A DNA stretch of 63,120 nt, counting the filler, from Reclinomonas americana ATCC 50394 (Eukaryota), in NCBI GenBank assembly GCA_048213135.1. It is 6 parts of 4 records of this genome, joined end to end, with 100 filler letters (N's around TTAATTAATTAA, not from the genome) between each part and the next. Parts side by side here need not be neighbours in the genome. Positions count along the whole stretch, not along the records: positions 1 to 17,473 come from PS015126.1; positions 17,574 to 41,314 come from PS015127.1; positions 41,415 to 51,568 come from PS015127.1; positions 51,669 to 55,752 come from PS015128.1; positions 55,853 to 61,264 come from PS015128.1; 1 more part is not named here. One strand, 5' to 3'. Positions 5,401-58,800 of this stretch are shown here, one piece after another (the first letter of the stretch is position 1; each line of letters starts with the position of its first letter). The notes beneath the pieces are model-generated. The model saw only the letters and a list, made by a program, of their open reading frames with translations. It searched no databases and was not told the origin of the DNA. Made by a program: the position numbers and the translations under genes.

Positions 5401-8400
5401 GATCACCCGAGCAAGAATGATCCCCGGCGTGCCCGCGCTGCTCGAGGCATCCATAATAGCACCTGCGCACGGAACGTGCAATAACAAGATGAACAGATCA
5501 ACTGGAAACCGTAGCAAAGCAATACAACCGACTCACTGACTGCAACAAGCCAGACAAAGGACAAAGCTCGAGAGCATCACCGTGGACATGTTGCTGAACT
5601 CGTTCGTCACTCGGTCGCATTCAGCCTTGAAGTTATCCACGAAGTCAGCCAAATTCTTTTCCAGCCAATGCTGAACACGACCCAAGCGGTGGCGGACGAC
5701 GATATCTGCGAAGCATGACTGAGCGAGTGATTTTGCAAGACGTGAGAATATTGTAACAACCTAGCAGCTGTTGGAAACCCTTCGCCCACATATTGTGGTT
5801 CGAGTGAGAGCGATGCGAAACAAGAGCCTCGAAGACTTCGCGAATCGGCTCGGTGACTTGAGCAAATGATCGATAGCCTTCAGGTGCCGCTGCGCGAGAA
5901 CTGAGTGACACGCAGTCGAGATTGATCGTGGAATCGAGGAGTGGGAATTCCACTGGAATATCAGCATCATCATCTTCATCGCCTGCACGGAAAAATTATC
6001 TCGTCATGTAGAGAAGCAAACCGACAACACACAGAAGCGATTGAAGAAGGTCACCTGCAATGCCCAATTGTCGGCGAGTAATGATGAAACTTGAGTCCTC
6101 AACATTTTCGCCTGTGTCCAACAACATAAGCGGCGAAGAGTCCATCGTCGAGTCAGTCGGATCCAAGAGGCGGCCATACACCAACGCGACACACAGCTGT
6201 GCACTTAGCATCTCCGTCTGGAGTCCAGCGCGTTAACCACTGGCACAATCGCGAACAAGACGTGCCCCGCCTCCAACTTACCCGCACTCGCGCCAACTGA
6301 TTGTCAGCTGAGTTCCAGTCCTTCACGGCCACTGATCATGATTGCATGTACAGGAGTAGTAGTAAATCATCACAATGCACAGTGCAAAAACAACTCTCTG
6401 AAGGCACACACAAACCTTTTGCCATGAGCAGCGTGAGCGCTTCGCGGAATCGGCGCCCGCCCTCAAAGGATGGTGGCAGAGTTCGAATCGACTCCCCGAG
6501 GTCTATCATGTCGTCGTCTGTGTACGAGCAAAGAGAAGCGAATCAGGGACACGAGAGAGCACTGGAGAGAAACATACTACCAATGACTCACAAAAACCAA
6601 CAGAGCCAAGTGGAGAAAACATAACGATGTTAACACGTCCGCCGTACATCTAATCGAAAGCAGATGTTATTCCTGAATGGTCGCCTGCATAGCACTGCAT
6701 TTTGCTCAATTCGCACCGTTGTGAGGAAATCGTCATCATCTTCGTCAGTGACAATCGGTCTGAGCTTCTCGACAAACTCGCTGCCAACATCGCCGGCGTC
6801 GCTCATCGGCACGTCGCGAACGATTATAGTGAGTTGCCCCTGCGCACAATCGTGTGACTGATTTTGCGAATATGCACTAGTACTGGAGGATTGCTAAACC
6901 AACCTTGAAAAACTGCCCACTTTGTTCCTTCTGCATGTACTTTGATCCGACCTGGAATCGTTTGAACGTGCTGGCGGTATCCTTGTCGAACCTCCATTCC
7001 GTTTTGAACAACTGCGACAGTCCAGCAGCAGTCATGATCACCTTGTAAACAAGAAGGAAATTTTGAGAACGCAACTGTGGCGTTCGAGATCGCCGCATTG
7101 AACACGGAGAGCAAAACGTCTTCCTGCTCAGTGCGCTCGAAAGAACCAAGTCCCTCGAAGTCCATGATCACGTACAGTTCTCCGCTGAGTTGCGGCGACA
7201 ATTATGTAAGATTTAAGCATGGAAACAGAGCAGGAAACAGCAACCACGCACACACAATACGCAACTTGAACTTACGCGTGGTCATCCACACACCGTCCGT
7301 GCAGCGGGCTCCGGATATGTCGAAGAGTGCGCCGGTCAAATGATTCAGCCTGTGCTTCGCGATACAACGAATCAGAGCTCTGTTTCACAAGGAAGAATGA
7401 CAGCCATTGCGTAACATGTAGCTCTTTCCCGTACTCTGCTTGCCCATGGAAGAAATGACCTTGATCGGACCCGTCCAAGCCTGCAAGATCGCCTCGTATG
7501 GCCCGAAGCGAATGGTGCGCATGACATCTTGCAAGTGGCTAACAGTTGACAGCTGATTGCTGGCACGGAAGCCATCAGAGTACAAGTTGAAGGCATTGCG
7601 CTCCGCACGAGCGATCTGGATAGGAACGAGCGACACCAAGAGCTCAACGATCTCCAACAATGTGCGAGGAGGCCCACTAGCCACGTGCTGGAGGTTTGCC
7701 ATCGTGAGTCAACGGATCACAATAAACAAGACTTAACAATCAAATCACCTGGTTGAAAGAAACTCGGAGGCTGGAGAACGGTCGACACTCAATTCGAGGG
7801 TCAAGGCGATCAAAGTCTTTTTTCGTCTCATCCTGAAGTTGACGCAGTACAGCATGTGCATCTACGACAGGCGACTCAGTTGAGCACCGGGAGTGTTCTC
7901 GATAGGGTATCACGCAACATTGAGTCATCCGCGTGGCTTTGTCGCGGAATTCTGTTTCGACAGTGTCAAGATAAAAAATGCAGCGCAAAAGAGCACGTTG
8001 AGGCGACATGGAGGGCTGTACGGCATAGCGCTCGAAAATAGCTGCAAAAAAGTGAGCACGAAAGCGCGTACATATGCACGCCAACAACAGCATTTCGAAT
8101 ACCATGGAGATACACAAGCAAAGGATTGGCTTGAGCAATCTCTTCTTTATCTCCGCGCCCAGGAGCATTGGCTACTTGGAGTTGTCTGAATCCAACACAA
8201 GTTACGAGCTTCAGCTTCAGCAAACGATTTAAGCACCCAGCGGACGTGTGTAACCTTCGTTTCTCCTCTGACTGGATGTCAACGCGGCGTGCGGTCCACT
8301 GCTTCACCCCTGACACTGAGACTTCCACGGCAACAAGAAACATAGTGTCTTCCACGACGCACAACTGCAATGTAGAGACAGAGGAGTCATCAACGAAATT

Positions 8401-14400: not shown

Positions 14401-14569
14401 ACGGTGGCAACTGATCCTGCGTCGGCAAACCGCACACAGCACACAAACGAGGCTCGTCGGCGGCACCGGAGGCCACGACAGCTTCACCACATTGACACCA
14501 GACCAATGATTCCTCCGGCGGATAAGCAGCCGCAGAGGACTCGTGAGGCGCCGGCGGCGGCGCACTCAT
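2428..14569 (-). CDS. Very large multi-exon protein: N-terminal low-complexity and ubiquitin-like region, VLIG/URG4-type (GBP superfamily) GTPase, Cys/His-rich repeat region, C-terminal vWA domain
   Basis: Spliced G1 SSMGKQSTGKSYMLNH (~7340-7450), G2 ARCTDGVW, G3 DFEGLGS (~7150). Many CxHxCxxxC/CxxxxxH motifs at ~3440-5500. vWA MIDAS VVFVVDRSGSM (~3325-3353), GGTNF, VIVFLSDG. Continuity as one gene across 8-14 kb is inferred; not every exon was traced. Confidence 0.75.
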
Positions 14570-14920
14570 CTGACACACCACCAGTAAGTTGGGGGACGCG
14601 AGGGGATGTATGAGAATCGAGTATCGGTCGAGTTGCAGATGCAATCAAGCGCAGCGCGACACACTGCCTCTTCTGATGCACAGTGCACGCCAACAATAAC
14701 ACACGAGTGTAGTGCCACAGAGACGCACTCGGCGTCAACACAACAAGAGACACGCAACTGTGAGAGTTTTCCCGGCTCTGCACAAGAGGAAATGCAAGAC
14801 AATGGACAAACAATTGAATTGTCATACTGCTCGCTCGTGACTAACGGCTTGCCTTGTGATCAGTTTTCCGAGTAGGATGAACGCGCTGCACCTGCGTCAG
14901 TACGACGACGGGTCAGTCCC

Positions 14921-18192: not shown

Positions 18193-19950
18193 TGATCACT
18201 GCCCGGCGCTCCGAAATGGAAGCGTGCCGGCGCGGCCACCGGCGCCCACCCGCTGCTGAGAACAGTGTTGGGGTTGACACCTGCGTGCAACACGGCCGCG
18301 GGTGGATGCGACGGAGGCGGAGGCAAGTCCTCGAACAGGTCCTCGTCTTGCTGCGCCGGCCGCCGTGCACGAGAACGCAATGAGACGAGGAGTCACACGC
18401 AATGTGATCGCAAACGTGTGGCTCTCGCACGCAACTTCCTTGTAAAAGAACGTGTCCAGCAAGTACGACGAAAACTGACGAAGGGCATCAATGGGAAGAT
18501 CCTGCAGGCGCTCCAGCGCATCCTGGCCACCCAACTCGGCCACCACTTGCGCGTGCTGCGTGGAGAATGCAGTCAACAACAACACCACCACCAACATGGA
18601 CTGGTGGTAGCGCACCGAATCATCGAGCTGCATGTAGAACTGCAGGAAGCGCATTGCCATTTCCTGCACGCTCGGGCGCGGAGCTGTCACCAATTCCACA
18701 TATCGTCGCACCACTTCGTGGGAGATGATGTCCGCCGCGTGCCGACCGTCGCTCACGATGTTGGCCACGACGTAGGCCGCCTGTGGAGAGGTGCATAAGT
18801 GGGGAAGGCGAGTGACTCTGCACATGGAGCAGCTGGAGGCCACACACACCTCCATTTTGATTTCGAGTTCCGGCGCACTCAGATGCTCGAGAATAATGTC
18901 GAGAACGCCTCCGCCGAGGACGGCATCCACGTGGTGTGGCTCACTGGCTGCCACGTTACTGATCACCCACAGCGCCTCCCTCACCACCGTTCTGATACGC
19001 AGATTCGCGCGTGCGTGTCAGCCAAGCGGCAGCATGCGCGGGAAAAGAAGCTGGAAACTTCCGCACACACACCTCGTGCCTTGCACCTCGCGACTCAGCG
19101 ACAAGGCGTGCATCAGTGCCGGGAAGAGTTCAGCAGCGTGCAACAGCAGCGCTTCCACCAACTCCGACGGCCCATTGGCAATGTTGCCGAGCGATCGTAA
19201 TGCTCCCATCACCGCTTCGCGGTCGTCGGCACCAATGTTGCGAATCTGCCGCACACGTGCGAGTGAGCCGGCGACCCTGTGGGGAGGAAAGAGGACCATT
19301 GCGACGACGTAACCAGCGGTTGCACACACTCGCACTCCACCACGGCCGCCTTGTACATGGGACATGCCGCGAGGTACGCCACCAGCCAGCACACTTCACG
19401 AATCACCTCCAGATTCTGCCAGTTGGCGAAGTGAGACGGTGTTGCTCGTTGTGGTGGCGAACGGAACGCAACATCTTTCCACAACAGTCGCGGCAGCTTC
19501 GGCAGCAGCCCAGCATCGACCGCCTGTCGTGCCACCTCGTCGCGGTTCTCGCCATGCATCAGCATCGTCAGCGCCCACGCCCCCACGGCTTGCGTCGATT
19601 GTACCTGCGTCGCGAGGTTGGTGAATCGGAAGCAGCACTTCAACTCGTACGTGTGGCGCACGCAACTGGTGAGCTCAGCACGTGCACCAGACCAGGCACC
19701 ACACCCTGCGCAATCAGCGCCTTGCGCATCTCGTCCTCACCACCGGCCAAGTTGCCGACCACGAATGCACACTGCTCTTGCATATCCTGCTCCACACCAC
19801 ACAATCATCTCAGCGACGACAGCAATCGTGCACAGACAACTGCACAACTGCACAACACGCAACACTGCTGCCGCCACTCAGGAACTGAATCACGTGCGGC
19901 GCAAGCTCCATCACCGCCACGGCATGCTCGTGCGATCCACTGGCCACATC
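18150..19950 (-). CDS. KPNA: Importin alpha, ARM-repeat and C-terminal part
   Basis: EQCAFVVGNLAG, EVIREVCWLVAYL, ALRSLGNIANG, VREALWVISNVAA, EAAYVVANI; acidic tail ending ..RFHFG..; TGA at 18150-18152. Confidence 0.88.
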
Positions 19951-21771: not shown

Positions 21772-24700
21772 TCACACGACGTCGACAGTCCCGGCCGCGG
21801 ACGACGGGGGGCAAGACACTGTCGCCGACGCAGGCACCGGTGGGCACGTGGCAAACCACTTGTGCTTCAAAGCATCGGCGGCACTGATGCGGTCGTCGGG
21901 ATTCAGCTTCGTCATGCGCTTCATGAGGTCGATGGCCAGGTTCCACTTGCGCCACAGAGCCGATCCCTCCTCGGCGCGTACGTCGCGCTCCTCACAAGTG
22001 GCCTCCTCGAGCAGCTCCCGCACGTCCATCGGGTGCAACGAGTCCGTGTACCACGGAAAGTTTCTGCCCATCAGCATCATGGCCAAGGTCACCACCAAGC
22101 TCCACATGTCGACTTCCACGCCCCACGCATCGCTCTCGCCGTCCCACCCGCACATCTCCGGCGCCTACCGTCCATTTGGTGTTACACATACAGTTAGAAA
22201 CAGCAGCTTGCAGACAGAGGCGTGGTCGTTGTACGCACAAAGAAGCCGCGGGTACCACGCTCGTCGCCGTACTGGCGAGCGCCGCCGTTGCGCAGCATCA
22301 CGCACAAGTCGTAGTCGATCAGAACCGCGCGCTGTCGGCAACGGTCGAAAAGGATGTGCACCGGCTTGATGTCGCAGTGCACAATGTGGCGGGCGTGCAT
22401 ACTGCGGAGTACCAGGAGCGTGTCGCGCACCGCCACAGCTACCTCGTCAATGTTGAGAAACGTGTCGTCGGGGGCTCGCTTGAACACCAGGATGCCACGC
22501 CACGGTTCCTCTCTCAGCAGCTGTGGCAAGCAGTCGCGGATGGCAACATCGTCGAACAGCATCCTCAGCACTCGCGCCTCCAGGTGCGTTTGCTGTGGGC
22601 TAGTTGTCTTGGTGAGGATGCTGAAGATTCCGCGGCCGCCACCAGTTCTCGACGGCGCGGTGTGAGGAGTGATCCCACCCGGGTTGACGGTACGAATCAA
22701 ATCGAAGAAACTGGGTTGGTGTACGCCGTCGTGGGAGTGAAGCAGCGCGGCAGTTCGGCGCGCCGTCTTCGCGATGGCCAAGAGCACTGCGTGCAGAGAT
22801 ACCATTGTGCCCACTGCACGGCGCGTGGATGAGACACTCGCGAAACTAGATCCGGAACACCGAAACGCACCTCGAAAGCCAAGAAACTCGCTGCACAGCA
22901 GCATCTCTGAAGCCGTCGTATCGCGGCGGGCAAACTGCCAAACGCCGAGCGCAGAGTAGCCGACAACACCGGCGATAGGGTCGACAAAATGGCACTCGAA
23001 AATGGCCACCGTGGAGTGCCCGGTGAGTGCACCGAACACAGTGAGCTCACTTTCGCGTCCTTGCTCCACGCGTGCCGCCAGGTGCAGTAGCGAAAGCCAC
23101 ATCGACTCGAACACCTTCTTCGCGTCGGGATGGCGCAGCAAGCCAAGCGAGGTCCGCGCCCTCCGCTCAACAGCGCCAGTGCCACAGAGTGCGTTGATGT
23201 CGCCCGGCTCGATCCGTTCGGCATTGCCAGCCCGCACTTGTGCACAGACACGAACGAGGGCATCGGAAGCCTCACCAACAGGTCGCAGGGCAGCTGCTGG
23301 TATCACCCTGTGACCAGAAAGACATGAGTGCCATCTTATGAGCTCATTTCAGCAACGCAGCGCACTCACGTATTCCAGAACGCGAGGCCCGACTTGTTTT
23401 CCGTCAGAAAGACTGGGAGCGTGAAATCGACTTCACGGACGGCGGAATACTTGCGCACGACGAGGCCCAAGTCCATGCACATGCAGCGCATAGCGGCCGC
23501 GTTCACATTACCGACGGTCGCGAGGTCACGCGACTGATCGTCCTCATAGCTGTCTGACGACGATGTCTCCGACCCATGTGTTGCTGACTCCGACGCTGCT
23601 GCAGCACAGAAACGTCCCAATGACTGAGTCACGGGCAAGCGTGCGAGAGGCAAAGCATGCAATGCAAACCGCGGTCGTCCACCCGAGGCACCATCGCGCC
23701 GTGCGTGAAGTCCACGAAATACATGGGATATTCAGCTACCGCGACTCGCTTGCTGCACAGCATTGCTCCAAACATGCCGTTCCACACTCTGCCCTCGACA
23801 TATACTTCGCTGCCAGTGAAGACTGCGTGGAAAACAGCGGAAAGGTTAACTGCCGCACGTTGTGTGTGTGAGTGCAGCTGACAGCACGCACGATTGTCGA
23901 GTTGCGAGTGGAGACAGAGCACGCGTTTGGTCGGTAGCGGGTCACCGCTTCCACTGGCGGCGTCATTCTCGCCAGCAACTTCGGCGCTGTCCATGAGAGC
24001 GCGCACTTGACTGATAGCCCTGATGCACGACGAAGGTAAGAAGCACACGAGGATAACAATCGCGACGACAGCATTGCACCAATTGAAGTCGACGTCCACA
24101 TCAGCTGTGTCACCAGTCGGCACAGGTCGCCCATGCAGCAGTGCCTCGTCCTCCACCACCGACTCCAGAGTGGAATAGCTCATCCCCAGCATCGAACCAG
24201 ACAACAACTGGTGGAGCGAATCGAGAATGTCGTTCTCGACCGACTGCAAGCAGTCGGCACTGACAATGGCGTGCGATTCTTTGCCGAATTTCAGCAGCTT
24301 GCTCATTCCGTTGTTGGCAAGACGCACAAGCCCTGCCACAAGCAAACACACTCAGTGGACGCGAGAGCAGAATAATTGCACGCTGTCACTCGTACCTTGC
24401 ATGAGATCGCGACGGCATTGCACGTCGAGAACACTCCTTCCCTTGCTGACGAGGTCGGCAGCCACGCCCAAGAGGAGACGCAGTCCCCACTTCAGGCTCT
24501 GAGGTTCAAGGACGGCGTCAAAGGTGGTCGCAAGCGGCGGCTCTGCAAGGAGCGCAGGTGAGACGCTCATTGCAAAGATGCACAAACTCTGGCGGTCATC
24601 CGCCTGTGAAGGTGCACGCAACTCGCACTGTCGTCGGCGGAAGCAGTGGTGAGTTGGTTGCAATCACCGCGCCGTGGGGAATGCCCACCAGTTTCCACTG

Positions 24701-25477: not shown

Positions 25478-25665
<188 letters not shown>

Positions 25666-25713
25666 TTCAGCACTGCGATTCACGACAGAATAGACGTGGG
25701 GAGAACACGGAAC

Positions 25714-27091: not shown

Positions 27092-30550
<3,459 letters not shown>

Positions 30551-33597: not shown

Positions 33598-35364
33598 GTT
33601 TGACTCGGCGCCGGCCGTGTTGCGCGCGCTGTTGCATGCACCGGACGGAAGCGGTGTCCAGTACATTGCGGCGGGTGCGTTCTCCCTCTTCCCCGCCTGC
33701 CTCTTGTGTCGCGTGTCGGCTCATCTCTCTTGCGGATTGCAGGCATGAACAGTGCAATGGTGGAGGTGCGGCGACTGGGCGCGCATGCCATTGCTCTCGG
33801 CTTTTCGTCGTCGGCCGAGGACATGGAGGCTGTGGTTGCGTGGCCTGCAGAAACGCTTCTTGTTGATGTATGCTGCATACTGATGGGCGATGCAGTTTGC
33901 CACCGACGCAATTCGTGTGTTGTGGGCGGCGTTCACCGACGGCGAGTTGTCCGTGCACAAGGAGGCCGACGCGTTCCTGTTGAAGGTTTGTGTAAAGTGA
34001 ACGCTGTATATCACTGCTGTTCGTCTCATCATCGTTGTGTTGCTGCTCGATAGGTGTTGACGGAGCCTGCACTGTTCGAGGTCTTTCACCGACGCGAGGA
34101 GGTGGTGCGCTACTTCCAAGAGTTGCTGTCGCCGCACGGCAGCAAGAGCGCACTGATGTTGTCGCTGCGCGGCATTGACGTGCTGCTGCGCGCGTCGCAA
34201 TCCTCGGAGGCGGTGCTAAAGTAAGTCACGAAATCCTCTGGCGCGCACAAGGAAGACTTCCTCTCATCGTGTTGTCGTGTAGCTTTGCGATCGATGTTGG
34301 CATGATCACCGCGCTGACAGCGGGTGTGGCGTACGACGACATTTTGCATCCGGCGGCGTGCATGGAGCTCATTCAGCAGGTGGGTGTCTGCGTGATCTCA
34401 CACCGTGCTCTCCCGATATTTGTGCCTCACCTCGCGCGTCTCGTGCGCAGGCGATCAACATTACACACGGCGGCGTTCCGCGTGGTCTGCAGCTGCTGGC
34501 CGAGACGGTGCGAGAGGCGACGTATGGCACGCTGTGCAAGTGGAGTCGCGAATCGGTGCGTGACGAAGGGGAGCTTCCGATGGAGGCCACCTTTGGCATG
34601 CCATCGTTCCTGGACGCACTGTCGGCGTACTTTGCGCGTGTGGCCAGTGCGGATCCCACCGAGGAAACACGTCGTGAGTTGATGGCTGGCTTTGATGGCG
34701 TCTTTACGATGATTGGATCGCTGTGGAAGGCGGCAGCGACCGCACGCGAGCCATCCATCAAGGTGTGTGGGTCTGTGCTCTTTTGGTGACGTCTCGTGTC
34801 AGGTTTGCTGACGCGGGGGGAGACAGAATGGGTTGCTGGTGTGCCTGCGTGGATACTTGCACACGCGTGAGGCACTGGAGTTGCTGCGCGCGTCGCGTTC
34901 CGCCCAGGAGGTGGTCTCCGATGTGTTTTCTGTGCTGCAGGCCGGCCAGCGCGAGCAGGTCCGTCTCGTGGCCTGTGTCAATCTGGCACGCCTCTTTGAG
35001 GCACATGCCACGTTGCGTGGCGATGGCGAGAGAGTGTAGAGGGGGTGTGTTGCTCACACCATGGTGTGTGCAGAGTCCCGCAAGTGTCTGAGGCCGAGCT
35101 GAAGAGTGTACTGTACGACCGACTGCCAGGCAAGCCGGTGCTGGCTGGTCTCCTCATTTCGTACACCACTCTCCCGTTTGCGGAGATCAAGGCGGCGAGC
35201 TTCGATGCCGTGCGAGTTGCGTTGCTCTCTGTCTCTCTCGTTTGCCGCACATCTGTCAGCCATTTCTCACTCATTCAGCATCGTGGTAGGCCTTGTGCTT
35301 GCTGCGGTTTGGCGCCGAGCACGTCATGGAGTACCCGGGATTCCTGCAGCGCATTCTCGATCGC
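33598..35364 (+). CDS. PSMD5: 26S proteasome regulatory-particle assembly chaperone PSMD5 (S5b)-like, partial
   Basis: Helical-repeat protein with DDILHPAACMELI, PFAEIKAASFDAVRAL and MEYPGFLQRILDR resembling PSMD5 conserved segments. Confidence 0.65.
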
Positions 35365-41821: not shown

Positions 41822-44800
41822 TACTCGACGTTTGGTTCGCCATCGGCGGCCGAGTCGCCGAGTGCGCAAGAGGAGGATGCCGACATGGCGGCACATCAGG
41901 CGCCGTCGGCTGTCGGTTCCTCTATCAATCGGCGCACGTTTGAGCGCAGTTTCGTGACAGCGAGCGAGTGTGTGGAGTGACAGCAGGCTCCTGATGGACT
42001 CACGAGTTGCTGCTGCTTCTCAAAGGCCGCAAGCGCACTCTGTTGTCGAGTTATTCGTCTGCGGTGCGTGCGCGTGCAGCGTCGATGGGAGCACTCGGAT
42101 CACCTGGTCCCTCTGGCGACATGCTGTCGGCTGTGACTCCTCCACGAGGCTCCGCCAGTGCGTTTGGGGATGAGGAGCCGTCGCGACCGTCACCAGGTAC
42201 ATGGCGAGATGCGCGTCACGTCGATCAGTGATCAACGTCCGTGACACTAAGAATGCGATGGAATGTGTTTTGTAGGCAAGCGACACGTCGTGTTGTCGGG
42301 TGGGAGCCTCGGGGCGCGCGGCATTCTGGGACGCATCGATTCCGAGATGCTGGTGTCGCGCTTTCCCAACACGTCGCATCTGGATGAGTTTGAGCGAGCG
42401 ATCCCGCGTCGCGCCACCATCACTGTGCTTGCCGATGCAGCGTTTCGTTGACAGTTTGTTGACGGGGAGGGGAGGGCAATCGACAATTCTGACACTCGTG
42501 GAACAGGGGTGTTGCGGCACTGGAGCGTGAGTTGCGCAGCGTGCCGGGCGTGCGACATGTGGCATCTCAGCGGACGAGTGCGGCATCGGGCGTGCAACGG
42601 ACGCTGGTGACGGTCGAGTCGAGTGTCACCGAATTCGGCGGCCCCGGTGAAACCGCACATTATGTGTGCCGCAAGCTGAAGCTGCAAAACGCCGGTGCGT
42701 TTGTATGTGTACTTGCTGACAGAGAGGGAGCGCGTTGACCGACATGTTGTGTTGGTATGGCAGGCGATCCCTTGCAAATGTTCCGCCGCAGTTTTGGTGT
42801 GTGCTGGGGTCCAGCGGGCCAGTTCATGTATCCTGCCATGGCCGCCGTTGGCGCACACGCAGCGGGAGGCAGCAGTGGGGCAGCAGCGGCGGCGGCAGCG
42901 GCGGCGAACAGCAAGGTTGCCGTGTCTGTGATGGCGCGCTCACGTCTTCGTGCGTGTCCGACTCGCCTGCCGAGTTTCGTGGCACTTCTGTGTTTCCATG
43001 TTGATGTGTTGCTTGTCTCACGCATTGTACTCGCACGCAGCACCCGCTGGCCTGCAGCTCCCACTGCCGCAGCCCGACGACCACATTGTGGAGCGTGTGC
43101 ATCTCAGCATGGCCGAGCATTCACTCATCGAGCCAGTGGAAGACGAGCGCTCTGGTCGCCGAACTGTGCGCGCGCTGCACTGCTTGGCACCGGCGTCGTT
43201 TGTCGGCTACTTGAAGGTTGTGCAGAGGAGCTCTGACGCGCTGCGTGAGGGTGCACCTGTCGCCACGCAATATGCGGCGTACTTGCGTCACGAGGTCAAC
43301 CTGTGGTACTTGCTGGAGGCGCTGTTTTGTGATCGCGGCGTACTCGCAGCCTCGCAGTCTGCTCCTCTTGGTGCGTTTTTTCTTTGTGAGAATGACGGTG
43401 TTTGTGTCCTGTCGACTGACCGTGGCGCAGATGAATACTCGGAGCGTGTGCTGCGGCAAGAGCACGTGAAAAAGTGGCTGTGCTTGGCCGGCCAAAGGGC
43501 ACTCGAGCGTGCTCACGGGTTCTCGCCCGTGTCGGACACTCAGCAAATCTACGTGCACTTGGCCGTCGGTCGAGTTGCCGAAGCCATGACAGTGGTGCGT
43601 GGGTGTCATGCGTGCGTCTTCAACACCTCCATTACTGACTTGGTTGTGAAAGGCATTGCGCTCCGGCAACCCGCGCCTGGCCACACTGGTTGCGTCTGCC
43701 ACTCATCACTCGCCGCATGTGCGACAGCTGGTGGCGAAGCAGCTGGAGATGTGGCACGAGACTGGACGCGAGGCGTATGTCGACGAGGATTTGTGGCGTG
43801 CGTACGAACTGCTGGGTGGTACGGTGAGGATGCCGACAGTCGCGCCACTGGTGGACTGGAAGCACAATTTCTGCATGCATCTGCTGTACTCGGCACCACG
43901 TCACGATGCGCGAGAACTGGCCGACTCCGTCACCAAGTACTCGGGTCTGGTGAGAACAGGGGACGCCATTCGACCTGTGCCGTTTTACGCCGAGGTACGC
44001 TCGCTCTGCTGAAATCTGGGGAGACAAGAAAAGATGCTCACGCACCCGCATTTTCGTGTGGTGCGCAGTGGTCGGCAGGACGGGCTGCTGGTGGTGACGG
44101 CAGCCGCGGTGGTGCAGAGGACGCACTGTTCCACATTCTGCGTGCCTACACTTGCAACAATGGAGAAGAGTTGCGGGCCGCTTCCGTCGCAGCCGTTGAT
44201 GTTAAAGTGGTCAGTGCTGACTCCATGTTGCGCGTGTGTGCAGGTGGCCAGAGATGGCGAATCGCATTCTGCACTCGTTGTCGCACTCGCCGCACCCGCT
44301 GGACTATTCGCTGCCGTGGCATGTCATGGCTGTTTTGTTGCAGCGCGTGATGCCGCGCGATGGCTACAACTTCCCCATTGATGTCGAGATTCAAGATCTT
44401 GTCACTGCCAGGTTCACGCATACACTCACTCGCACGAAGTTGGTTCATGTCGATGCTCATGTTTTTTGTCATTTTTTGCAGTTTTGTGGAACAGCTGGAG
44501 ATCATGGAGTCGCCGAACAGCTGGCCGCTTGCGGTGTTTGTGGCCATGCATGTGTCATCTCATCTGAGGTACGTGTCTCTCACACCCTTGTCGTCATGCT
44601 TGTGCCACATTGGTTGATCACGTGCTCGGATGCAGACGCGAGCACCTCGTGCGAAGCATTCTCTCTCGCCACGTCCAACTCGGCAGTCGTACGGCTCTGT
44701 TGGACGACAACGATATCTTTGTGGTTGACCAGCTTGGCGTGCCGGTCGAGTGGATTCACGAAGCCAAGGTTCTGTTTCTCTCCCCTGTGTGCTGATATTT

Positions 44801-45790
44801 GTCGGCTCCCTCAACTCAAAAATGTATGGCAGGCATGGCGGGCGCGTATCGAGCATAGCGATCGTTTCCGGTTGCTGGAGGTCGATCATCTGCGGGAGTG
44901 CGGTCAGCTGGAGGAGGCCCTTGCCGTGTTCATGCCGTACGCCGTACGGCAGGTGGTTCTCGGGAATCGGTCGACCGTGAAAGACTACCTCTCCAGCTTG
45001 GTGGAGGCGTGTCGCTTCTCGGTTTGTCACACACACACACGCACACCGATCGCCCTTGTGCATGGTTGCGTGGACTCAATGCGTGGCTTGTGCGCGCAGG
45101 GACGGCCGATTGTGGGAAGCAGCCGCGCGGTGGATCTGTTGTGTTATCTGCGAATGGTCCAGTGGACCGACTTGGATGACTTGCTCAGGGTACGTTTTCC
45201 ATCACTCCACTTGTTCACATGCACTGCTTCCCTCGCTCGTCGTTCACTGTGTATATGTATGCGTGCGCGTAGAATACTCCCGACGTCGTACGGCACCTGT
45301 TGGACAGTGCGGTCGACGCCGGTAGCGATGCTGTCACGTTCATCCGACGTGTTCTCGATCGGCTGCGAGTGTGGGACGAGGAGGTGGCGCACAAATTCAA
45401 TCGCGATGTCAAGCGGAGCACGAATCTTCGGCAGTCGCTCCCGGACCGCGGCGAGTTGAATGGCGTGGTGGTGGCGCACCTGGAGCGTGATATGGGGTTC
45501 GAGCGGTGAGTTTGCTGACACCTCTTCATGTTGTCGACTTTCCCCTCACACGCGCGATGTGCAGCGCGTGTGTCGAGCTAATGGTGGGGTTCTTCACGGA
45601 CTTGGAGTTCCGCGCGGTATCGCACGTGCGCGAGCCAATTGTTGCGTTTCCTTTGTCTCCCATCTCGCCCGTCCACCTCTGGAGGTATGCTGATGTCTGT
45701 GTAGGAGCGCTCACGCGGACTGGAGGAGTTCTCGAGAAATCTGGTTCTGTTGCCGCTGGGATCACACACATCGGCACGAGCGATGGATGA
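41822..45790 (+). CDS. NUP98: Nup96 moiety of Nup98-Nup96
   Basis: FRRSFGVCWGPAG, WYLLEALF, ALRSGNPRLATLV, KQLEMW, YELLGG, DWKHNFCMHLLY, PLDYSLPWH, LGVPVEWIHEAKA; first visible exon opens at a TAG acceptor (41821), not at a start codon. Confidence 0.88.
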
Positions 45791-45883: not shown

Positions 45884-47429
45884 CTATTCTTCCTTCATGT
45901 GCGGCTGTAATCGCCACCGCACCAACAGCATGGTGAGACTGAAGATGGTGGTGATTAGGACGCCGGTGCCAAACACAATCAGTTCCGTGCCTGGGTTGGC
46001 CATTGTGAAGAGTCGAATGCCAATGTCCCAGTCCCAACTGTGTGACGCGTGTGAGAAAACAGGGTGCGAGTGGAGTGAAAAGGCGGGGGAGTGACGAAAC
46101 TTGCTCTCCACCGTGGTCGGCTTGCTGCTGTCGGCAACAAAGAAGCGACCGTTTTCGTAGTCCCAGTCAATGCCAGNNNNNNNNNNNNNNNNNNNNCGAA
46201 CATGACCTGGCGGCGAGCCCGAGTTGCTCGCAGTGGCTGCGTGAAACAAGGGAAAGAAATGATCAGCAGTGCTCGACTGCGCGACGATGCAAGAGTCGTC
46301 GCAACGTCGCTGTTCAGCGCATACGCTGCGGCCAGCGCGGCAATGGCGCCAGACAAGTTGCCCTCGGCGCCAGTGGCAAGCGAATGGAAGAAGCCGGTGG
46401 CATCAAAGTTGCTGGTGACCATGACTGTGTACGGTGACATCACAGTGTGAGAGCCACCCCAGTCGCCATCATCTCGCTCGCAACACGACTCAACTAATGT
46501 CGTCATATGGCGTGCTGCTGGCGGGCGACGCTGCAGATCCCCACACGCCCCACACCGAGTTGCCGCCGACCGGCTGACACGTGCCGTAGTCGAGACACTC
46601 GGTCGACGACTGACCCATCGAGTTCATCACGCTGTGGAACTCGGCACCATTGACCGGCGGCATCATGCCGCGTCGATCGTTCTCCTGCGCCCGTTGCACC
46701 ACATCGATTCCCGTGGCATCGTCGAGCTGGAAGATCGGCACACGGAACGCCATGCCGCTCAGGCCGTTGCCCTGTGAATGCACGAAGAGCAGCTGAGAAG
46801 TGAACGAATTTGATGGGCTGCTGTGAGACAAGCGCACCACCGGATTCCACTGCGGCACCCGCGTCGGGTTCTTGGGCATCAGTGTGCGTCCGTACTGATT
46901 GGCCGTGGAGAACGCTGGTGTAACATGTGAGCGAGCGACAAGAGGCACACATGCAGACAGCGACACCGAACTGACGAGGCTCTTGGCGGTGCCCGGCAAC
47001 ACCATGACGCCCGCCACCTTCTGCTCCATCTGCGCCTGATTGCTGGCATACACACTCGCAAAACTGCTCTCCCACTCCATGAGCAACACACACGCATGCA
47101 CACAAAGGAGCATGACGGCGCAACTCGACCAAGAACGACGGCGGAATGACCCACGCATACTGCTCATACTGCGTCAGTCGCAGCACCTGCTCCGCCACAG
47201 TGCGATTGGCCACCAACACCAGTGGTCCGTACTGTGAGTCCTCCAGTGCCGAGCAGCCAAAGCCCACTGCACCGTCGGCCAACCACGCACACTCCACCGC
47301 CGAGGGAGCATGCACCTCGGTGTACACTGCGCGGTACAGAGCGTTGTCCTTGCCGCTGGCCACCTGCTGTGCGTGTGTCGCCCCGACAAGGAGCAGCAGC
47401 ACTGCCAGTGACAAGAGCACAGCGCGCAT
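45884..47429 (-). CDS. NCSTN: Nicastrin (gamma-secretase subunit), middle missing in a 20-N gap
   Basis: Signal peptide; WNPVGNGL..F..PIF; CQPVGGNSVW; FDATGFFHSLATGAE..SG..A.LAAA.AL; C-terminal VESNW...IRLF followed by one TM helix. Confidence 0.88.
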
Positions 47430-47655: not shown

Positions 47656-50600
47656 ATGGACCTCCCGCATGTGTTGCGTCGTGATGCTCTCCTCTCGCCC
47701 CTCTCTTGCATGCGCTCACACACGCGCACGCAGCTCATTGAGCACACCTCCGCTGCTGCAATGGCGAGAGCGTGACATCTCTGCGCACCTGCGATCGTAT
47801 GCCGACGAGTCGCGACGCGAGCTTATCTTTGCGGTGCACGATCCGCAAACGCACACTACGGTGTTCTCGGCCTTGTCGTACGCAGCGGCCGCGGATGGTG
47901 GAGCCTCGTCGAGTGTGATGGCTCGGCGGAGGCGACAGAAGCTGCCGGTGGTCTCCTCGAGTGGATCGCTGGCGGCGGCCGCGGCCTCGGCAGCCTCGGC
48001 AGCGCCAGGCACAGGTGCGCTTGCGTGTTGGTGCGGTCGCTCTCCCACCTGGTGCAGTTACTGATGATGGTCGCGGAGCACAGCACCGGATGATGAAGTG
48101 GTGATTCCGTCGCTGGTCGGCGAGTTCCCCGTGGTGCTCTCCGACGATGTGCTGGTCGCACGCAACGGACGACCTGACCCGTTGCTCGTACGGTGTGTGT
48201 CCTTGTGAGGTGCGCGTTGTTCGTCAGTCGCTCATGTTGTCCGTCGCGTTGTTGCAGCTACGCTCCCGATCACAGTCTCCTGTGCATCGTGTCGACCACG
48301 ACCGAGATTGTTGCGCTACTGTTTTGCTGTGATTCACTCGCTGCTTGGTCTCACGCACATACACACACAATGTACGCAGCTCTTTGTGGACTGCCAGCGA
48401 CCGGAGCACTTTGTGCACCAGTGCAAACCGATCATTGGTGTGCACTGGCTGGACTCGGCGCACATTGTCATCATCACGTCGACGGCCATTGAGGTGCACC
48501 GCGTGGAAGCGCGCAAGCAGCGACTGAAGCGCATCGAGGCCACCGACATTAATGTGCTGTGGTACATTTGGAGTCCGCACCTGCCGCAACCGTCGGTGCC
48601 GATGCCCTCCAACACGGCCGTGCATCCCGTGTCGGCTCACATGCACCAAGTTGCGCCAACGTGTAGCCGCCGCGCCCATGCGCAGTGAGCTGACAAACGA
48701 GTGTGTGCGTGCAGTATGCACGGCAAAACATGGCAGCGGCGGCCGACGCACAGGGTGTTCCGTCGCAGAGCATTCTCATTCTGGTGCCCGCCGACCCGAA
48801 GGCACAGACGCTGCGACCGTACATGATTACGGCGCCGAAGAAGAAGCCGATTACGAAAATGTCTCGTGTGCACCTGGTTCGTTGTGCATTCAGAACGATC
48901 GTTGCCGCCAACGCTCCTGGTATTGTCTCTCATCACTGCGATGTAGGAGGTGGCCGACAGCCGGCTGGTGGTGATACCGGAGCATCTGTGGATTGTGCAG
49001 CTGTACGGCGACGTGTATCTGATCCATGCCGACTTGCTGGCCGATGTGCGAGTCGGGGAGACTGCCGGCCAACCAACATTGGCCAACTCGCGAAGTGTGT
49101 CGACGCCCGACCGCGGTGCGCCAACCTCGTCGACCGGCCAGTCGTTGCATCTGCATCGGTTGAGTCGGGAGGCGCCACAACGCGCCTGCACGCTCTTCCT
49201 GCTCGACACGCATCCACTGCGCATCTCGGTGGTGGACAATCTCCTGCTCGTGCATGCCATTGATTCAAGTGTTTGTGGCCATTGGCGCTCTCTTTACGGT
49301 TTTGGCTCGTTACTCACGTCCTCGCGTGTGCTTCCGTTCTGTGCAGCGCACCACCATTTTCGACATTCGCACCTCGCTGGCGCCCATTGCACCACCATCC
49401 TCCATTGCGCCCTATGTTCTCATCAGCAATCCAGACACAGTTGGGGGCAGTGGCAGTGGCGGCGGCGGTGGCAGTCCCGACAGGTCTCACTTCTCTTTCC
49501 CTCGCTTCCACAATGTATACATGTGGCTGACCCTGTCGATATGTGCGTGCAGCGCGAGTGGAAGCAGCGCGGCTGGGGCAAGTGGCACGGCGGGTGTGTC
49601 CATGTTGGGTGCCGGCTGGGCTGCCGGCGGACTCCGTGGCGTTGGTGCCGCACCTGGCATTGAGCTCTGTTGCGTTTGCTCATTTGCGCCAGCGCGTGTG
49701 TGTATGTTCGTGATACAGCTGCGCCTGACATTATCACCAGACTCGAAGCGGTGGATCTTCCTGCTGCCAAACTTGGTGCTCGATCCCGGCATCGGCTGCT
49801 TGTGGGAGATTCAGCTCAACCTGGCCGAGTTGACCATGAGTTTCCAGAACAAGATCAATGCGGTCTGCATCCACCTCAATACTTGTGTGATTTGTCGCCC
49901 GTCAGACTTATGGATCGTCTGCAGATCGAGTTCCTCGTCAAGAGGCGCGGCGGCAAGGCACTGGTGATGGAAGTCATGCGCAACGTGCTGGAGGACAAGT
50001 ACCCGCTGCACATTGTGTCGTCCGTGTTTGACATGCTGAATCGAATCTACTACAGTGCCGTGTTGCACTAGTGCGTCCGCCACGAGCAAGACAGAGTGCG
50101 AGAGGCAAGCTGTCGTTCTTACTCTTTCGCTCCACCGCAGTGTCCGTATCTCGGAGATTAGTGCACGCGGCGCGGATCCCGCCGCCTTGGTGTCGTCGTA
50201 CTTTTTGGGTCAATCAGCCGATCCAGAGCAAGGAATCGAGAAGAATAGTGTGCTGACCGAGGCGTCGGGGTATGTGGTCGTGGAGGAGCTCGACATGTAC
50301 AAGGACGTGTTTGTCGTGCTCGAAGAGGTTTGTCAGCAGCGCTCTGACGCGCCGCCTGTCTCCTCCCCTGTTTCTCACTGCGCTGGTGGACGGAGTGCAG
50401 CACATCAGCATTGGCTACTTTGTGTGCGCTGTCACCGAGTACGTGAGGAGTCTGCACTCGTTCCGCCTGCCGGTGCACATTTGCCTGGAGCAGTTCTTGA
50501 TCTCCGTGCTGGTGAAGAATCGGCGGCATCACATTTTGCACCAGTTCCTGCAGTATCACGTCATCAGGTGTGCCAATGCGAGTATGAGAGAGTCAATGTA

Positions 50601-52133: not shown

Positions 52134-53520
52134 AACCCCCTTTATCTTCCAGGCCGCGGCCTCCAATTCGACGCACCTGCAATGGTGCCTCTCGGGCTAT
52201 GCTTGCAGCGCTGGCATTCAGTGGGACCTCACGCTGAAGGATGCGAACACCATGGAGTTTACTGTGCTCTTCCCGCCGCCAGTGGCGCACGCGTACGTCG
52301 TGCTGAAGCGTGTGGCCGATGCGCCGCCGGTGCCCGTCGGCACGCCCATGCACTGCAATTTCACCCGTGCGCACGAGGAGCCACGGCCAGTGGAGGGCGG
52401 CTGCCCGTTCCATGCGATGAAGAAGGCCGCTAATCGGGCCACGATGGATGCGGCGACCGTAGTGCAGCTGCAGGCCAATCAGGAGGCGACGCCGGTGGAG
52501 GTGCCGACGTGGACTGGCGACTACAACTTTTGCGTGGTGCTGAATCGCGCCGTGGACGCGCGACTGCAGTGGACGGTGCACGAGGATACCAAGTTGCGTG
52601 CACGCGGCGTGTCTGATGAGGGGCACAGGGCTGAACTGGCTTTTTCTCGGCACAGGATGCTGGATGTGGCGTTTTCTGTGCGCGGCGATGTGATGACCAA
52701 CTGGGTGTTGCGTAGTGGGAGGAGCGGCCTGCATTTTCACTTTGTCTTTCCCTCTCCCTGTTTTCTTTTCCTCCTCCTCTTCTGCGACTCACGATGAGCA
52801 GAGAGAGAAGGCAGAGGAGGAAGACGACGAAGGAGCAAGAGAAAGCAAGAGAATGACGACTGCAGAAGAAGAAGAAGAAGGAAGAGGAGAGGGAGGAGGA
52901 GGAGCAGAAGAAGGTGGTCTGCAGAGGCGTCCTCTCTCTTTCCCCTTTCCCTCCCCTTCCTCCTCCCCCTGTGGTTCAAGATAAGCTGCAGTGTGGAGAC
53001 GTTCACCTCACTTCCTCCCCTTTCCCTTTCTACAGTGGCTTCGGCTTCTCACCGGCCTTCCCGGGCATGATTGACGCCGACGTGGTGATTGGCTACCTCA
53101 TCAACGGCGACGCCAACCAGCAGTGCGTGCGCAGCATGTATACACGCGACTATGTCGGCATGCCGTACGACGACACCTCCATGCCGCTGACGCAGACTGG
53201 CGTGCAGTATTCTGCGTCGTCGGGCACCTACACGCTCATGTTCTCGCGCTCCCTGGCCTCGGGCCACCACAGCATTCCGGTGCACGTGCCGCCGTTCCCC
53301 AACTACGAGCCCTAGTGCGTCCACGAAACATACTCAAGTGTCTCTTGTCTTTCTATTGACCTTGTGTTGTTCTTGCAGCCTAATCATGTGGGCGACGGGC
53401 GGCGGTCCGGTTGGGTCGTGCACGGGCGCCAAGCTCAACTACCACAGCATCTTCCGCGGTGTGCGTGCCATGGACTGGACGACGCCCAGCAATGTGTTCC
53501 CGAAGGACATGTTTTGCTGA
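52134..53520 (+). CDS. DOMON-domain protein (5' partial)
   Basis: RLQWTV, spliced WVGFGFS...GMIDADVVIG, LMFSRSL, YLIMWATG, LNYH (Met/His positions typical of heme-binding DOMON). Confidence 0.8.
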
Positions 53521-53641
53521 GTGTCACCCCCCGAACTCGTTCTTTTTTCGTGAGTGGAATACATTAATACTTTATGAAGATGGCGAATCAGCAATACAAC
53601 AGTTGTGTGGGGGTAGGGTTAATCTTTGCAGCGCGCTCCAC

Positions 53642-55752: not shown

Positions 55753-55852
55753 NNNNNNNNNNNNNNNNNNNNNNNNNNNNNNNNNNNNNNNNNNNNTTAA
55801 TTAATTAANNNNNNNNNNNNNNNNNNNNNNNNNNNNNNNNNNNNNNNNNNNN
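55753..55852. other. Artificial scaffold linker 44N-TTAATTAATTAA-44N
   Basis: Same 100-bp structure. Confidence 0.97.
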
Positions 55853-58800
55853 CGGCCTGGAAGAGGGTGAGACAGGAAATGAGACGACTCCTTCGCTGAC
55901 TCTCTCGCTCAATTACAGAACTCCCACACAGAACTCATTCACTTCAAACCAACACTGCACTCCTTCGCTCACTCCTCTAATTGCACTCCATCACAGCACG
56001 TAGTCGTTGCTCATCTTGTCTCACTGTACTCGCTCACTGCACTCTATCTCTCCCTTTACTCTCCCACACAGCGCTAGCACGTCTTCGCTGCACTCTTTAC
56101 AGCTTTCTTTCAAATCTCTCTCTGTCTCTGCCACTAGATTCACTTAACTCCTTCACACTCTCTCACTCTGCTCCATGCAGCCATCTCCTTCGCTGCACTC
56201 TCCTCTGCCTCTCCGTTTCTTGCTCCCTCTCTCCCTCACCCAACACACCTCATATCTCGCAAACCACGTCGGCAAATCATCGGGCTCATCCTTCAACACC
56301 TGCACCACACCAATCCATCAACAAAAACACAACACATTACAGCATCGCTTGCTGGCAGCAACGCAACAAATATCTGTCCAATGCTCTCCGGCAACTCCCG
56401 CAACTCGTACTTGCTCGCATACGACTTGTCGTCTGTCACACTCGCCAACATAAACAAGAATGCACGCAATCCTCTCGCTTCTCCCTTGTCCATCACACAC
56501 CATGACGCACACCGCCGAGCACAATCACCGGCCGCTGACGATTGGCTTCGACAAAATCAAGCAGCGAATAGTCGCCCGGCTGGTCGCCGAGACCCCACCG
56601 CCGACCCGGCACCACCACACCCGCCAGGCGTGGTGCCACTCGTTTGGCGTACCACGGATACGACATAAAGTCGAGCTCCATCACCTGCACGTCTGGTCGC
56701 AGACCGTCGCACAGACTGGCGTAGCGGGAGGAGTTCACGAGCACGTCGCCGCGCACGAGGAGGATGCTGTGGGGTGGCAGGCGGCGCAGCATTTCGCGGC
56801 CCACGTCGGTGAGGAAGGTGCTGGAGCTGCGGTCGACCTGCGAAAGGGAGGGGAGGGGGTGGGGAAAGGGAGGTGAGTGAAGGGAAGCAGCAGACATGAA
56901 AGCGCATAGATGTTACGAAGGAAGAGACAATCATGCCTCACACTGGAATAACAAGCAAGTACGAAGCCTTGACGAGAGGTGACACACACCAGCATCCCTG
57001 AAAAAGACCAGTTCTCTGTCGCTGAGGCTTCTTGTGCTTGGGAAGAAAATAGACTGAATAACCGCAGCAGAGCAGATAGGGACTAGCCTCACGACAATTG
57101 CAAGCAAAAGACAGGCACGATTAGAAGAACACACAAGAAGTCAACAAAGCACATCAGAACCCAATGCAACAATGGAGCCTCGACGACAAGAGGCACACAC
57201 GCAAAAGAATCCCTGGAGATGACCCATTCAGCAACAACATGCATTCTGTCCATGCAGTGGACAAAATCATGGAGGAAGAAGACAGGACAGATCGTCCACG
57301 AGAGATACACAACAGAATCCCTGAAGAAGACTCCTTCTCTGTCACTGAGGCTTCATGTGTTAGAAGAAGACAGGACTGATCGTCCACGAGAGACAAACAA
57401 CAGAATCCCTGAAGAAGACTCCTTCTCTGTCGCTGAGGCTTCATGTGCTGATCGTCCATGAGAGACACACAACAAAATCCCGAAAGAGTGCCCGTTCTCT
57501 TCACCTGAGGATTCTTGCGATAGAAACGCGCGAGCAGCACATAGACTGAAGCTGCCTGCAGTAAAAGCAGAAGGGAATTACTTACGACGATTGCAAGAAC
57601 AGCAACCACATGCATACTGCTCATGCAATGAAAGAAATCACTGAGAAAGACTAGATGGGATAAAACCTCAACGAGAAGAGGTACACTCCACAGAATCGTA
57701 AAGAAGACCTCCCCCTCTTCGCCGACAAGCGCCGCGCCAGCACACACAAGGAGGAAGAAAAAAAGGAGACAGCATAGAAGTTCGTGGATGGGTGGCAGCG
57801 CTTTCCGCGGAAGTGCGCACACAGACATAGTGACACAGAGAGAGGGGGCTTTCCGTTCCTCCATTCCTTCCTTTTCCCCCTTCCCCCCTTTCCTCCTTCC
57901 CCTTTCTCCCCCTTCCCCTTTCCACCCACCTGCTGACGTTGCGCCACCACCTGCATCACACACACAGCCACCACCACCGCCAACACCACACCGCCCGATA
58001 TTCTCCTCAACGACATCCTCTCCACCACCACCTCACACATGCCGTGCATCCCGCAGGCCGCCAACAGCAGCAACACCAACGACGGCTGCATCCAGAATCG
58101 CGACACCACACTATAGTACAACGGCGACGACAGATCCAAGTTGGCGCGCGAGTGGAAAAAGAGCAGGTACAGCGCGAATGCCGACAGGAGAGGCACCCGA
58201 GCTGCAGCAAGCACCGGCTGCAAATAGAGAACACTCAGCGGCGACAAGCTCCTCGCATCCCCGTTCCTTTGTCATCAACTCACCGCCTTGGAGCGAGTGC
58301 GAAAGAGCAGTGCGACACCGAGTGCAGCGGCCGGCAGGCCCACGTGGAGCGACTCGGCGGAGAAATGCGCGGCAAACGTGAGCAGGCCCTGCAGCGGGTT
58401 GCTGCCGCCGGCGTACGACAGGCGGTTGGCCAAGTCGAATGTGCCGTACTCGGTGCGGAAAAAGTGGGCGAGAAAGCCAGCAAGAGTGGCGCTGTCGCCT
58501 GCGGCGAGGGAAGGGAAGTCAGTGACAAGAGAGCGAAAGGCGAGGATGCAATCAGCAGAGCGTACCCCAAGTGGCGCGCGACTCAGACCACGCAGTGGAG
58601 ATGGGCAAGTACAGGTACGGCAGCAGGCCCACGGCCAGCAGCACCACGTAGTCTAGCAGCAGTCGCGGCTGCCTTTGGAGGGTGGATCGGAGGGACCACA
58701 GCACCCAGAGCATGATGGGGAGCTGAGGCAGAAGGGGGGGGGAAGGGAAAAGAGTGAGAGATATAGGGGCAAAGGGGGAGAGACTGGGAGGCAAAGGGGG

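Follow-up and report, generated by a model that had tools for sequence, protein, structure and literature searches.

The question raised by this stretch of the Reclinomonas americana ATCC 50394 genome (assembly GCA_048213135.1) is whether an organism can routinely splice introns at donors of the form GTTGCG, in which the constant block of the ordinary GTGCGT donor lies one nucleotide deeper into the intron. The window, that is, the whole analysed stretch of 63,120 nt including filler, joins six parts of four records; a sequence-only reading had listed 22 such donors in it and had proposed that shifted or bulged U1 recognition, or a variant U1/U6 small nuclear RNA (snRNA), is a mainstream mode of splicing. 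All 22 positions carry the word on the strand given, and the counts given there hold: the base at −1 is A at 11 sites, T at nine, G at one (33835) and C at one (35012), and position +7 is T at 17 of the 22. Three of four related donors were also placed correctly, at 7415 (−, cat/GTTACG; here and below, a slash in a DNA motif marks the cut), 25713 (−, gca/GTTCCG) and 36800 (−, ggt/GTTTCG), while the fourth, cga/GTTTCG, starts at 17055 (+) rather than 17054. Judged from the genomic sequence, the analyses below show that the GTTGCG sites are real donors that form a discrete and frequent family, depend on the −1 base and keep the cut at GT. On the modelled pairing, we see even chances that U2-type introns here have two donor families, the second of which would be read in a +1-shifted register by a predicted ACGUAC-like U1.

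To place the junctions by homology we enumerated, for each intron, all in-frame, stop-free junctions within ±24 nt (widened to ±45 nt for 29095), allowing any terminal dinucleotides, and scored each product against homologues: a BEACH profile of 60 homologues, an ARM profile of 40 importin-alpha-like proteins and, for RMC1, the single homologue P0121. The comparison covered 12 of the 22 claimed sites, with 700–2,500 in-frame junctions scored per site. P0121, the sole protein from the RMC1 homologue search, is 793 amino acids long on a 2,681-nt contig and is therefore probably transcript-derived. At ten of the 12 sites the claimed junction is the best solution with GT-AG or GC-AG ends (Table 1), ahead of any GC or other GT alternative by 2.3–6.1 bits or 3–14 alignment points; the exceptions are 48650 and 19666. 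Second place usually goes to a GC donor 3 nt downstream. This donor, in frame at every site, costs one extra residue and trails by 2.3–6.1 bits or 10–15 points at ten sites; 19666 alone has it ahead, by 0.8 bit. The junctions VRQ/CPEY, PPWAS/SPRDF and EL/YSKRW, which had been considered pinned by conserved motifs, are indeed fixed by the homologues, ranking top among 757, 772 and 779 junctions, respectively. The spliced BEACH protein aligns without gaps over YLVRQ/CPEY, PPWAS/SPRDF and LFDA/PHPAR, with the BEACH domain 64% identical to its top database homologue, and P0121 is without the 24 residues encoded by 49669..49740. At 48310, 12 of the 777 junctions, all with other dinucleotides, outscore the claimed one against P0121. 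Taking all donor types together, homology pins 22 donors: 11 have G at +5, 11 are GTTNCG and none is anything else.

A relative provides a view of one of these sites from outside the window. The genomic open reading frame (ORF) P0122 matches the ARM exon at 18436–18780 (−) and shares its exon ends, AAY...FYKE, before diverging. It runs from intron to intron, and the V-C-C that follows the exon implies a main-type GTNTGY donor where the window has GTTGCG; the donor type can therefore change with the exon end fixed. The homologue search returned no close full-length orthologue of the ARM ORF, and the BEACH-domain homologue search no close annotated relative; metagenome scans for DNA of relatives found none, and an exact 43-mer from the window had no match among the genome contigs searched.

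We next asked how large the two donor classes are, using a gene finder that chains exons by the Viterbi algorithm with GT and AG as its only fixed signals and that learns coding statistics, first-order donor and acceptor models and intron lengths iteratively from a uniform start. After self-training, the top donor hexamers were GTGCGT (24) and GTTGCG (23). A low intron penalty over-splices, yielding 380 introns on both strands, and penalties of 11–14 with strand resolution were used instead. In three checked genes with 29 introns, the finder recovers 27 introns with three extra at penalty 11, and 26 with one extra at penalty 13. At penalty 11 its predictions include 15 of the 22 claimed sites; among the seven missed are introns whose length is a multiple of 3 (such as 49669) and sites where another in-frame choice lies close by. 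Since the donor model is trained on its own output, this recovery is not independent of the recurrence of the motif. Stripped of its signal models the finder places boundaries arbitrarily and recovers 3 of the 22 sites, and acceptor-only support for each GT hexamer is powerless, with even GTGCGT exceeding the 90th percentile in just 22% of cases. The intron 27812..27868 was overlooked at penalty 14, and 49669..49740 was likewise missed.

At penalty 13 the 162 predicted introns comprise 91 donors with G at +5, 25 GTTNCG donors (GTTGCG 17, GTTTCG 5, GTTACG 3) and 46 others; at penalty 11 the corresponding figures are 113, 31 and 87 out of 231. The 'other' donors probably include many errors of the gene finder. 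The GTTNCG class thus makes up about 10–15% of predicted introns, and the expectation that GTTGCG exceeds what independent positional frequencies allow was borne out, with 17 observed among the 162 donors against 0.75 expected. The main family has G at +5 (GTGCGT, GTGTGT, GTGAGT, GTACGT, GTTCGT and the like), follows G in roughly 70–80% of cases and has C at +4 in 35, T in 34, A in 14 and G in 8 of the 91 donors. Main-class donors are very degenerate except for this G at +5; the donor of the intron at 49863–49924 (+), gcg/GTCTGCA, is pinned by the RMC1 homologue, with none of 782 junctions scoring better. The second family reads H/GTTNCGT, mostly GTTGCGT(G), with the T-N-C-G-T-(G) block one base deeper into the intron.

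Word counts point the same way. GTTGCG occurs 66 times in the window against 51.9 ± 7.3 in shuffled sequence (3 of 100 shuffles reach 66), GTTGCGT 32 times against 12.75 ± 3.53, a 2.5-fold enrichment, and HGTTNCGT 50 times against 24.4 ± 5.1; none of 100 shuffles reaches the observed number for either of the latter two. Thirty of the 32 GTTGCGT words lie on the sense strand of local genes, as inferred from predictions and AT skew, a bias to be expected in part from the excess of T over A on that strand. The skew itself tracks the coding strand, at about −0.2 for plus-strand and +0.1 to +0.3 for minus-strand genes. Outside the claimed list, GTTGCGT also occurs on the presumed sense strand at 7918, 9857, 10691, 11236, 12675, 14758 and 55185 (−) and at 30020, 41683, 43689, 45065 and 62856 (+). 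Those at 43689, 55185 and 62856 are predicted donors at penalty 11, 55185 also at 13, and the remainder fall in poorly modelled genes. The GTTGCGT donor class may be larger than 22.

The base at −1 separates the families. G precedes 2 of 25 GTTNCG donors but 72 of 91 donors with G at +5 (Fisher p = 8e-11, penalty 13); at penalty 11 the counts are 3 of 31 and 78 of 113 (p = 3e-9). Among homology-pinned donors, none of ten GTTGCG donors follows G against 10 of 11 in the main class, and the single pinned GTTACG donor does have G at −1. GTGCG donors, as had been stated, mostly follow G (13 of 17 predicted). The association between −1 and +3 is not made by the gene finder, since a first-order chain passes nothing across the invariant G and T. 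The avoidance of G(−1) noted in the sequence-only reading thus stands against main-class donors; against background no depletion emerges, since GTTGCG words that are not donors also seldom follow G (6 of 42). When GTTGCG donors are scored under the main-class matrix, a shift by one base raises the log-likelihood of the −1 column from −58.6 to −6.2 and that of the intron side from −355.5 to −145.4. The missing −1 G favours a +1 shift over a bulged U, which should retain it.

By length and 3′ signals, as read from the DNA, the GTTGCG introns are ordinary U2-type GT-AG introns. The median length is 67 nt in the GTTNCG and main classes alike, CTNAY is found in 20 of 25 GTTNCG and 61 of 91 main-class introns, pyrimidine content and the acceptor −3 base are similar between the classes, and YTNAY lies 12–44 nt upstream of AG in 19 of 20 claimed introns. 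Six of the 20 claimed introns measured have a length divisible by 3 (19416–19472, 27812–27868, 28191–28268, 49669–49740, 52593–52655 and 7185–7265), and retention of an intron such as the stop-free 19416–19472 would add residues without a premature stop.

Several other identities were considered and rejected. U12-type donors have the motif RTATCCTT; the donors here read GTTGCG, and at the 3′ end these introns match the main class. Copies of an introner-like repeat are not what the introns look like, since an alignment of 21 of them has GTTGCG as its one invariant element, with the terminal AG nearly so and a mean column identity of 30%. If cleavage moved with the register, giving TT...GG introns, the base after the acceptor should be G, which it is not constantly. 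Finally, a sequencing error turning AGGTGCGT into AGTTGCGT would shift the frame, and the frames found are those that homology requires.

We then folded the donors against the 5′ end of U1, taking the canonical sequence from the accessible text of PMC4856993 and an alternative, ACGUAC, which is hypothetical here. With canonical U1 the mean duplex energy is −1.5 kcal/mol at the 22 GTTGCG sites, −6.15 in the main class and −2.7 at 500 random GT sites; with ACGUAC U1 the respective means are −5.8, −8.0 and −4.1 kcal/mol. The ACGUAC sequence places 20 of the 22 GTTGCG sites in the shifted register and 73 of 91 main-class donors in the canonical one. On these modelled energies canonical U1 cannot account for the GTTGCG class in any register. 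At gathering scores no Rfam family, U1, U5 and U6 genes included, was found in the 63-kb window.

In the mechanism that we propose, GTTGCG donors would pair one base out of register, first with the 5′ end of U1 and afterwards with the ACAGA box of U6. G(+1) would stand in for G(−1) opposite C9 of U1, U(+2) would be mismatched to C8, UGCGU would pair as in the main family, and the catalytic core would still cut before GU. Because shifted pairing is too weak with canonical U1, the U1 of this organism is predicted to carry G at position 5 (ACGUAC), which the main-class preference for C or T at +4 fits. That a single ACGUAC-like U1 reads both families in registers one base apart, with U6 following and the cut fixed independently of the helices in more than one in ten introns, we put forward tentatively, as somewhat less than an even prospect.

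A number of observations weigh against this interpretation. With canonical U1 the duplex at GTTGCG sites is weaker than at random GT sites, and the shifted register is the minimum-energy one at just 5 of 22. Exon positions −3 and −2 do not separate the registers (log-likelihood −67.5 unshifted, −66.3 shifted), and T at −1 (9 of 22 sites) is accounted for by neither. GTTGTGT and GTTGAGT, the shifted forms of the common GTGTGT and GTGAGT donors, are nearly absent, so simply moving the entire main family by one base would give a broader class than the one seen. Thecamonas and Micromonas have C at +4 alongside a canonical U1, so this base is no proof of a changed U1. The predicted set, moreover, holds false positives, one to three beside 26–27 true introns in the three checked genes.

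Recognition could differ from this in several ways. The GTTGCG donors might have a reader of their own, a second U1 paralogue or some other dedicated snRNA complementary to A/GUUGCGU in the normal register, so that there would be two U1s and no shift. The GTTGCG class stands as a separate group, not as a fringe of the main family, and it pairs with canonical U1 below the level of random GT sites, as such a scheme would have it; some protists do show variation at the 5′ end of U1, and standard and modified variants in Physarum are mentioned in the accessible text of bioRxiv 10.1101/2022.06.08.495308. However, one ACGUAC U1 would serve both families more economically, and the T-G-C-G-T-G block is identical in the two, as for one reader, and we regard the second U1 as unlikely. 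Alternatively, no special snRNA register is involved: proteins or U5/U6 contacts would define the donors, with UGCGU near GU as a favoured word at loose spacing. The degeneracy of donors (the pinned gcg/GTCTGCA; 46 of 162 predicted donors outside both families), the negligible pairing to canonical U1 and the U5-type and U6-type classes of human 5′ splice sites reported in the accessible text of PMC11732430 are all compatible with this. Yet there are just two spacings, the −1 base switches with the spacing as base pairing in two registers predicts, and many of the 46 are probably errors of the finder; we find loose spacing distinctly unlikely.

The same U1 might also act in its normal register with one U of GUU bulged (the bulge +2/+3 register). 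GT-T-GCGT is GTGCGT plus one extra T, the bulge is the minimum-energy fold at 2 of 22 sites, and C at −3 in 16 of 31 GTTNCG donors suits an unshifted exon side. A bulged duplex, however, should depend on the −1 G:C9 pair no less than main-class donors do, and it is precisely this G that the GTTNCG donors, predicted and pinned, do without; the human bulge register is itself rare, at 54–68 of 201,541 sites (Table 3 of PMC4856993, accessible text), and we judge a bulge very unlikely. Of the original proposal of shifted or bulged recognition as a mainstream mode, then, the abundant class is real and its −1 pattern fits a +1 shift, whereas canonical U1 pairs very weakly and the bulge is disfavoured; a shift would work well only with a non-canonical U1, the alternative that the proposal itself had offered. 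Last, the donors could be an annotation artefact, with the true cut elsewhere (at the GC at +3, GTT/GCGYRC, or at a GT at +6) or with the draft sequence wrong. The GC at +3 is in frame everywhere, is the usual runner-up and is ahead at 19666; 35012 has an alternative of equal length; and the scaffold is a gapped draft. Against this, the GT junction wins at 10 of 12 tested sites, which already largely refutes the alternative for the ten pinned ones, a base error would break the frames required by homology, and the heptamer is enriched over shuffles as described above. We consider an artefact scarcely credible.

The other ten claimed sites lie outside the homology comparison. The gene finder recovers six of them, and those at 7075, 7265, 35012 and 52707 rest on hand splicing (Table 1). 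At 7265 the finder picked GTGTGC 12 nt downstream with the acceptor unchanged. At 35012 it favours GTGGCG 5 nt downstream together with an acceptor 2 nt further on, the two products being equal in length and differing by one residue. For 35216 it took a 44-nt intron to 35259; from the sequence, the TAG at 35289, with TTCTCAC upstream, is preferred. The exons flanking 44170..44243 are contiguous within about five residues in Pfam Nup96 profile coordinates. Conceptual splicing of 52707..53035 yields WVGFGFSPAFPGMIDADVVIGY, with the downstream exon beginning at position 33 of 124 of the DOMON profile; the exon upstream of 52707 has no Pfam match, and the finder took another path here. The stretch is rich in CT and GA tracts and, if a real intron, would be some five times as long as the median.

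Table 1. GTTGCG-type introns of the window ('claimed' introns are those of the sequence-only reading; rank is the position among scored in-frame junctions, or the number of junctions that score better; margin is the lead over other GT/GC-AG junctions)
Positions	Strand	Gene	Donor	Junction	Length (nt)	Status and basis	Rank	Margin
27436..27496	+	BEACH	aat/GTTGCGC	VRQ/CPEY		intron; homology	1/757	best by 6.1 bits
27812..27868	+	BEACH	caa/GTTGCGT	PPWAS/SPRDF	57	intron; homology	1/772	best by 5.8 bits
28191..28268	+	BEACH	gct/GTTGCGC	LFDA/PHPAR		intron; homology	6/797, ≤1 bit from top	best of 4 by 5.9 bits
29095..29173	+	BEACH, WD40 part	cga/GTTGCGT			intron; homology	1/2,549	best by 4.1 bits
47673..47733	+	RMC1	tgt/GTTGCGT	MDLPHV/SLS		intron; homology (P0121)	0/786 better	best by 10 points
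48310..48379	+	RMC1	att/GTTGCGC	TTTEI/LFVDC		intron; homology		best, 200 vs 197
48650..48714	+	RMC1	caa/GTTGCGC			predicted intron; gene finder; region unconserved in P0121	530/771 better	
49669..49740	+	RMC1	tct/GTTGCGT	GIEL/YSKRW	72	intron; homology	0/779 better	best by 14 points
18351..18435	−	ARM	gaa/GTTGCGT	FFYKE/QDEDL		intron; homology	4/769	best by 2.3 bits
19416..19472	−	ARM	gat/GTTGCGT		57	intron, stop-free in all frames; homology	8/766	best by 4.1 bits
19605..19666	−	ARM	cca/GTTGCGT			claimed intron; homology	108/784	two others 0.8 bit higher
19787..19863	−	ARM	agt/GTTGCGT			intron; homology	6/711	best by 3.9 bits
33835..33895	+		gtg/GTTGCGT			predicted intron; gene finder; only claimed site with −1 G		
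35012..35073	+		cac/GTTGCGT			claimed intron, ambiguous; hand splicing		
35216..35289	+		cga/GTTGCGT			predicted intron, acceptor uncertain; donor from gene finder		
44170..44243	+	Nup98-96, Nup96 part	aga/GTTGCGG			predicted intron; gene finder		
52593..52655	+	DOMON-domain gene	caa/GTTGCGT		63	predicted intron; gene finder		
52707..53035	+	DOMON-domain gene	ggt/GTTGCGT	...MTNWV/GFGFS	329	claimed long intron; hand splicing		
7012..7075	−	GTPase-like	aca/GTTGCGT			claimed intron; hand splicing; gene finder chose GTTTTG at 7117		
7185..7265	−	GTPase-like	caa/GTTGCGT			claimed intron; hand splicing		
24541..24622	−	kinase-containing	cga/GTTGCGT			predicted intron; gene finder; read-through hits stop 24 nt in		
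56300..56367	−		ttt/GTTGCGT			predicted intron; gene finder, penalties 11 and 13		
45641..45704	+	Nup96	att/GTTGCGT			predicted intron outside claimed list; gene finder only		
47055..47124	−	nicastrin	cga/GTTGCGC			predicted intron outside claimed list; gene finder only		
19246..19313	−	ARM	ctg/GTTACGT			GTTACG-type intron outside claimed list; homology		best of only 2 by 12.7 bits

The window is a draft scaffold with 22 runs of N and a G+C content of about 0.53–0.59 outside gaps, and its genes are intron-rich, with short introns (median 67 nt). Pfam searches of open frames identify a FAN/lvsF-type BEACH-WD40 protein, Nup98-96, nicastrin, RMC1, DOMON and PEX11, as well as a protein kinase, an importin-alpha-like ARM protein and a TMEM260-like protein. 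(TG)n microsatellites are very common and often adjoin assembly gaps, examples being 27094–27130 and the sequence downstream of 25713 (−); GTGTGT occurs 267 times in the window. The FAN-type gene switches strand: its PH-BEACH part lies at 25478–26384 (−), on a small contig between gaps, and the BEACH domain onward runs from 27092 (+), past the next gap, with homologue residues running from 26265 down to 25698 and then upward from 27135. The switch probably reflects a mis-oriented contig in the scaffold. The Nup98 autopeptidase domain, at 40452–41314 (−) on a contig bounded by gaps, with Nup96 downstream at 43650–45456 (+), is probably a second inverted contig. On the minus strand, 4954–14600 holds one or more large genes with long open frames and only weak Pfam matches at an E ≤ 0.001 cut-off. 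A homologue search with its P-loop (GTPase-like) exon gave nothing, and the region was wholly overlooked by the first rounds of the gene finder.

The two families would offer a natural setting in which to study what determines the cut when the helices of U1 and U6 are displaced by one base, and they yield a sharp prediction, cheap to check, about the 5′ end of U1. Annotation is affected as well: donor models that treat positions independently will misplace or miss GTTGCG introns, as our own gene finder did with seven of the 22.

How does this compare with known systems? In the literature we found no GTTGCG-type donor and no organism with such a second class, in a search whose coverage mostly excludes subscription journals and supplements. 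The shifted register itself, described by Roca and Krainer in 2009 as cited in the accessible text of PMC4856993, is known as a human rarity; what would be new here is its form as a routine single class with a clean exon-side rule. As in the human shifted-register sites presented there, an extra U follows GU, the block complementary to U1 is displaced by one base into the intron, G is found at +6 rather than +5, the cut stays at GU and G(+1) would pair in place of G(−1). The differences are in abundance, word and strength. Human sites of this kind are rare, with all validated non-canonical U1 registers together amounting to 1.5% of 201,541 sites (PMC4856993, same text), whereas here one class alone reaches the share of predicted introns given above; the word is GUUGCGU rather than the human GUUAAGU; and the duplex with canonical U1 has a mean of −1.5 kcal/mol against −6.5 predicted for the tested human example ACAGUCAAGUAUA (same text). 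The human bulge +2/+3 register, by that account, likewise consists of the main consensus with an extra U after GU; unlike it, the donors here do not retain G at −1.

Co-evolution of U1 with donors offers a second comparison. According to the accessible text of Roy and Bowser (bioRxiv 10.1101/2022.06.08.495308), the U1 of Entamoeba carries ACAAAC and that of Mastigamoeba balamuthi ACGUAC; in Mastigamoeba an atypical donor with C at +4 (GUGCGC) is matched by the changed U1, and the same ACGUAC would suit both families here. Each of these organisms has one consensus and one register, and no second, shifted family is described for them in that text. Canonical ACUUAC U1 occurs together with AG/GTGCGT donors in Micromonas and with +4 C in Thecamonas (accessible text of PMC3879977 and bioRxiv 10.1101/2022.06.08.495308). 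The main consensus of Micromonas, G/GTGCGT, is the same as here, and those texts mention no GTTGCGT class for either organism.

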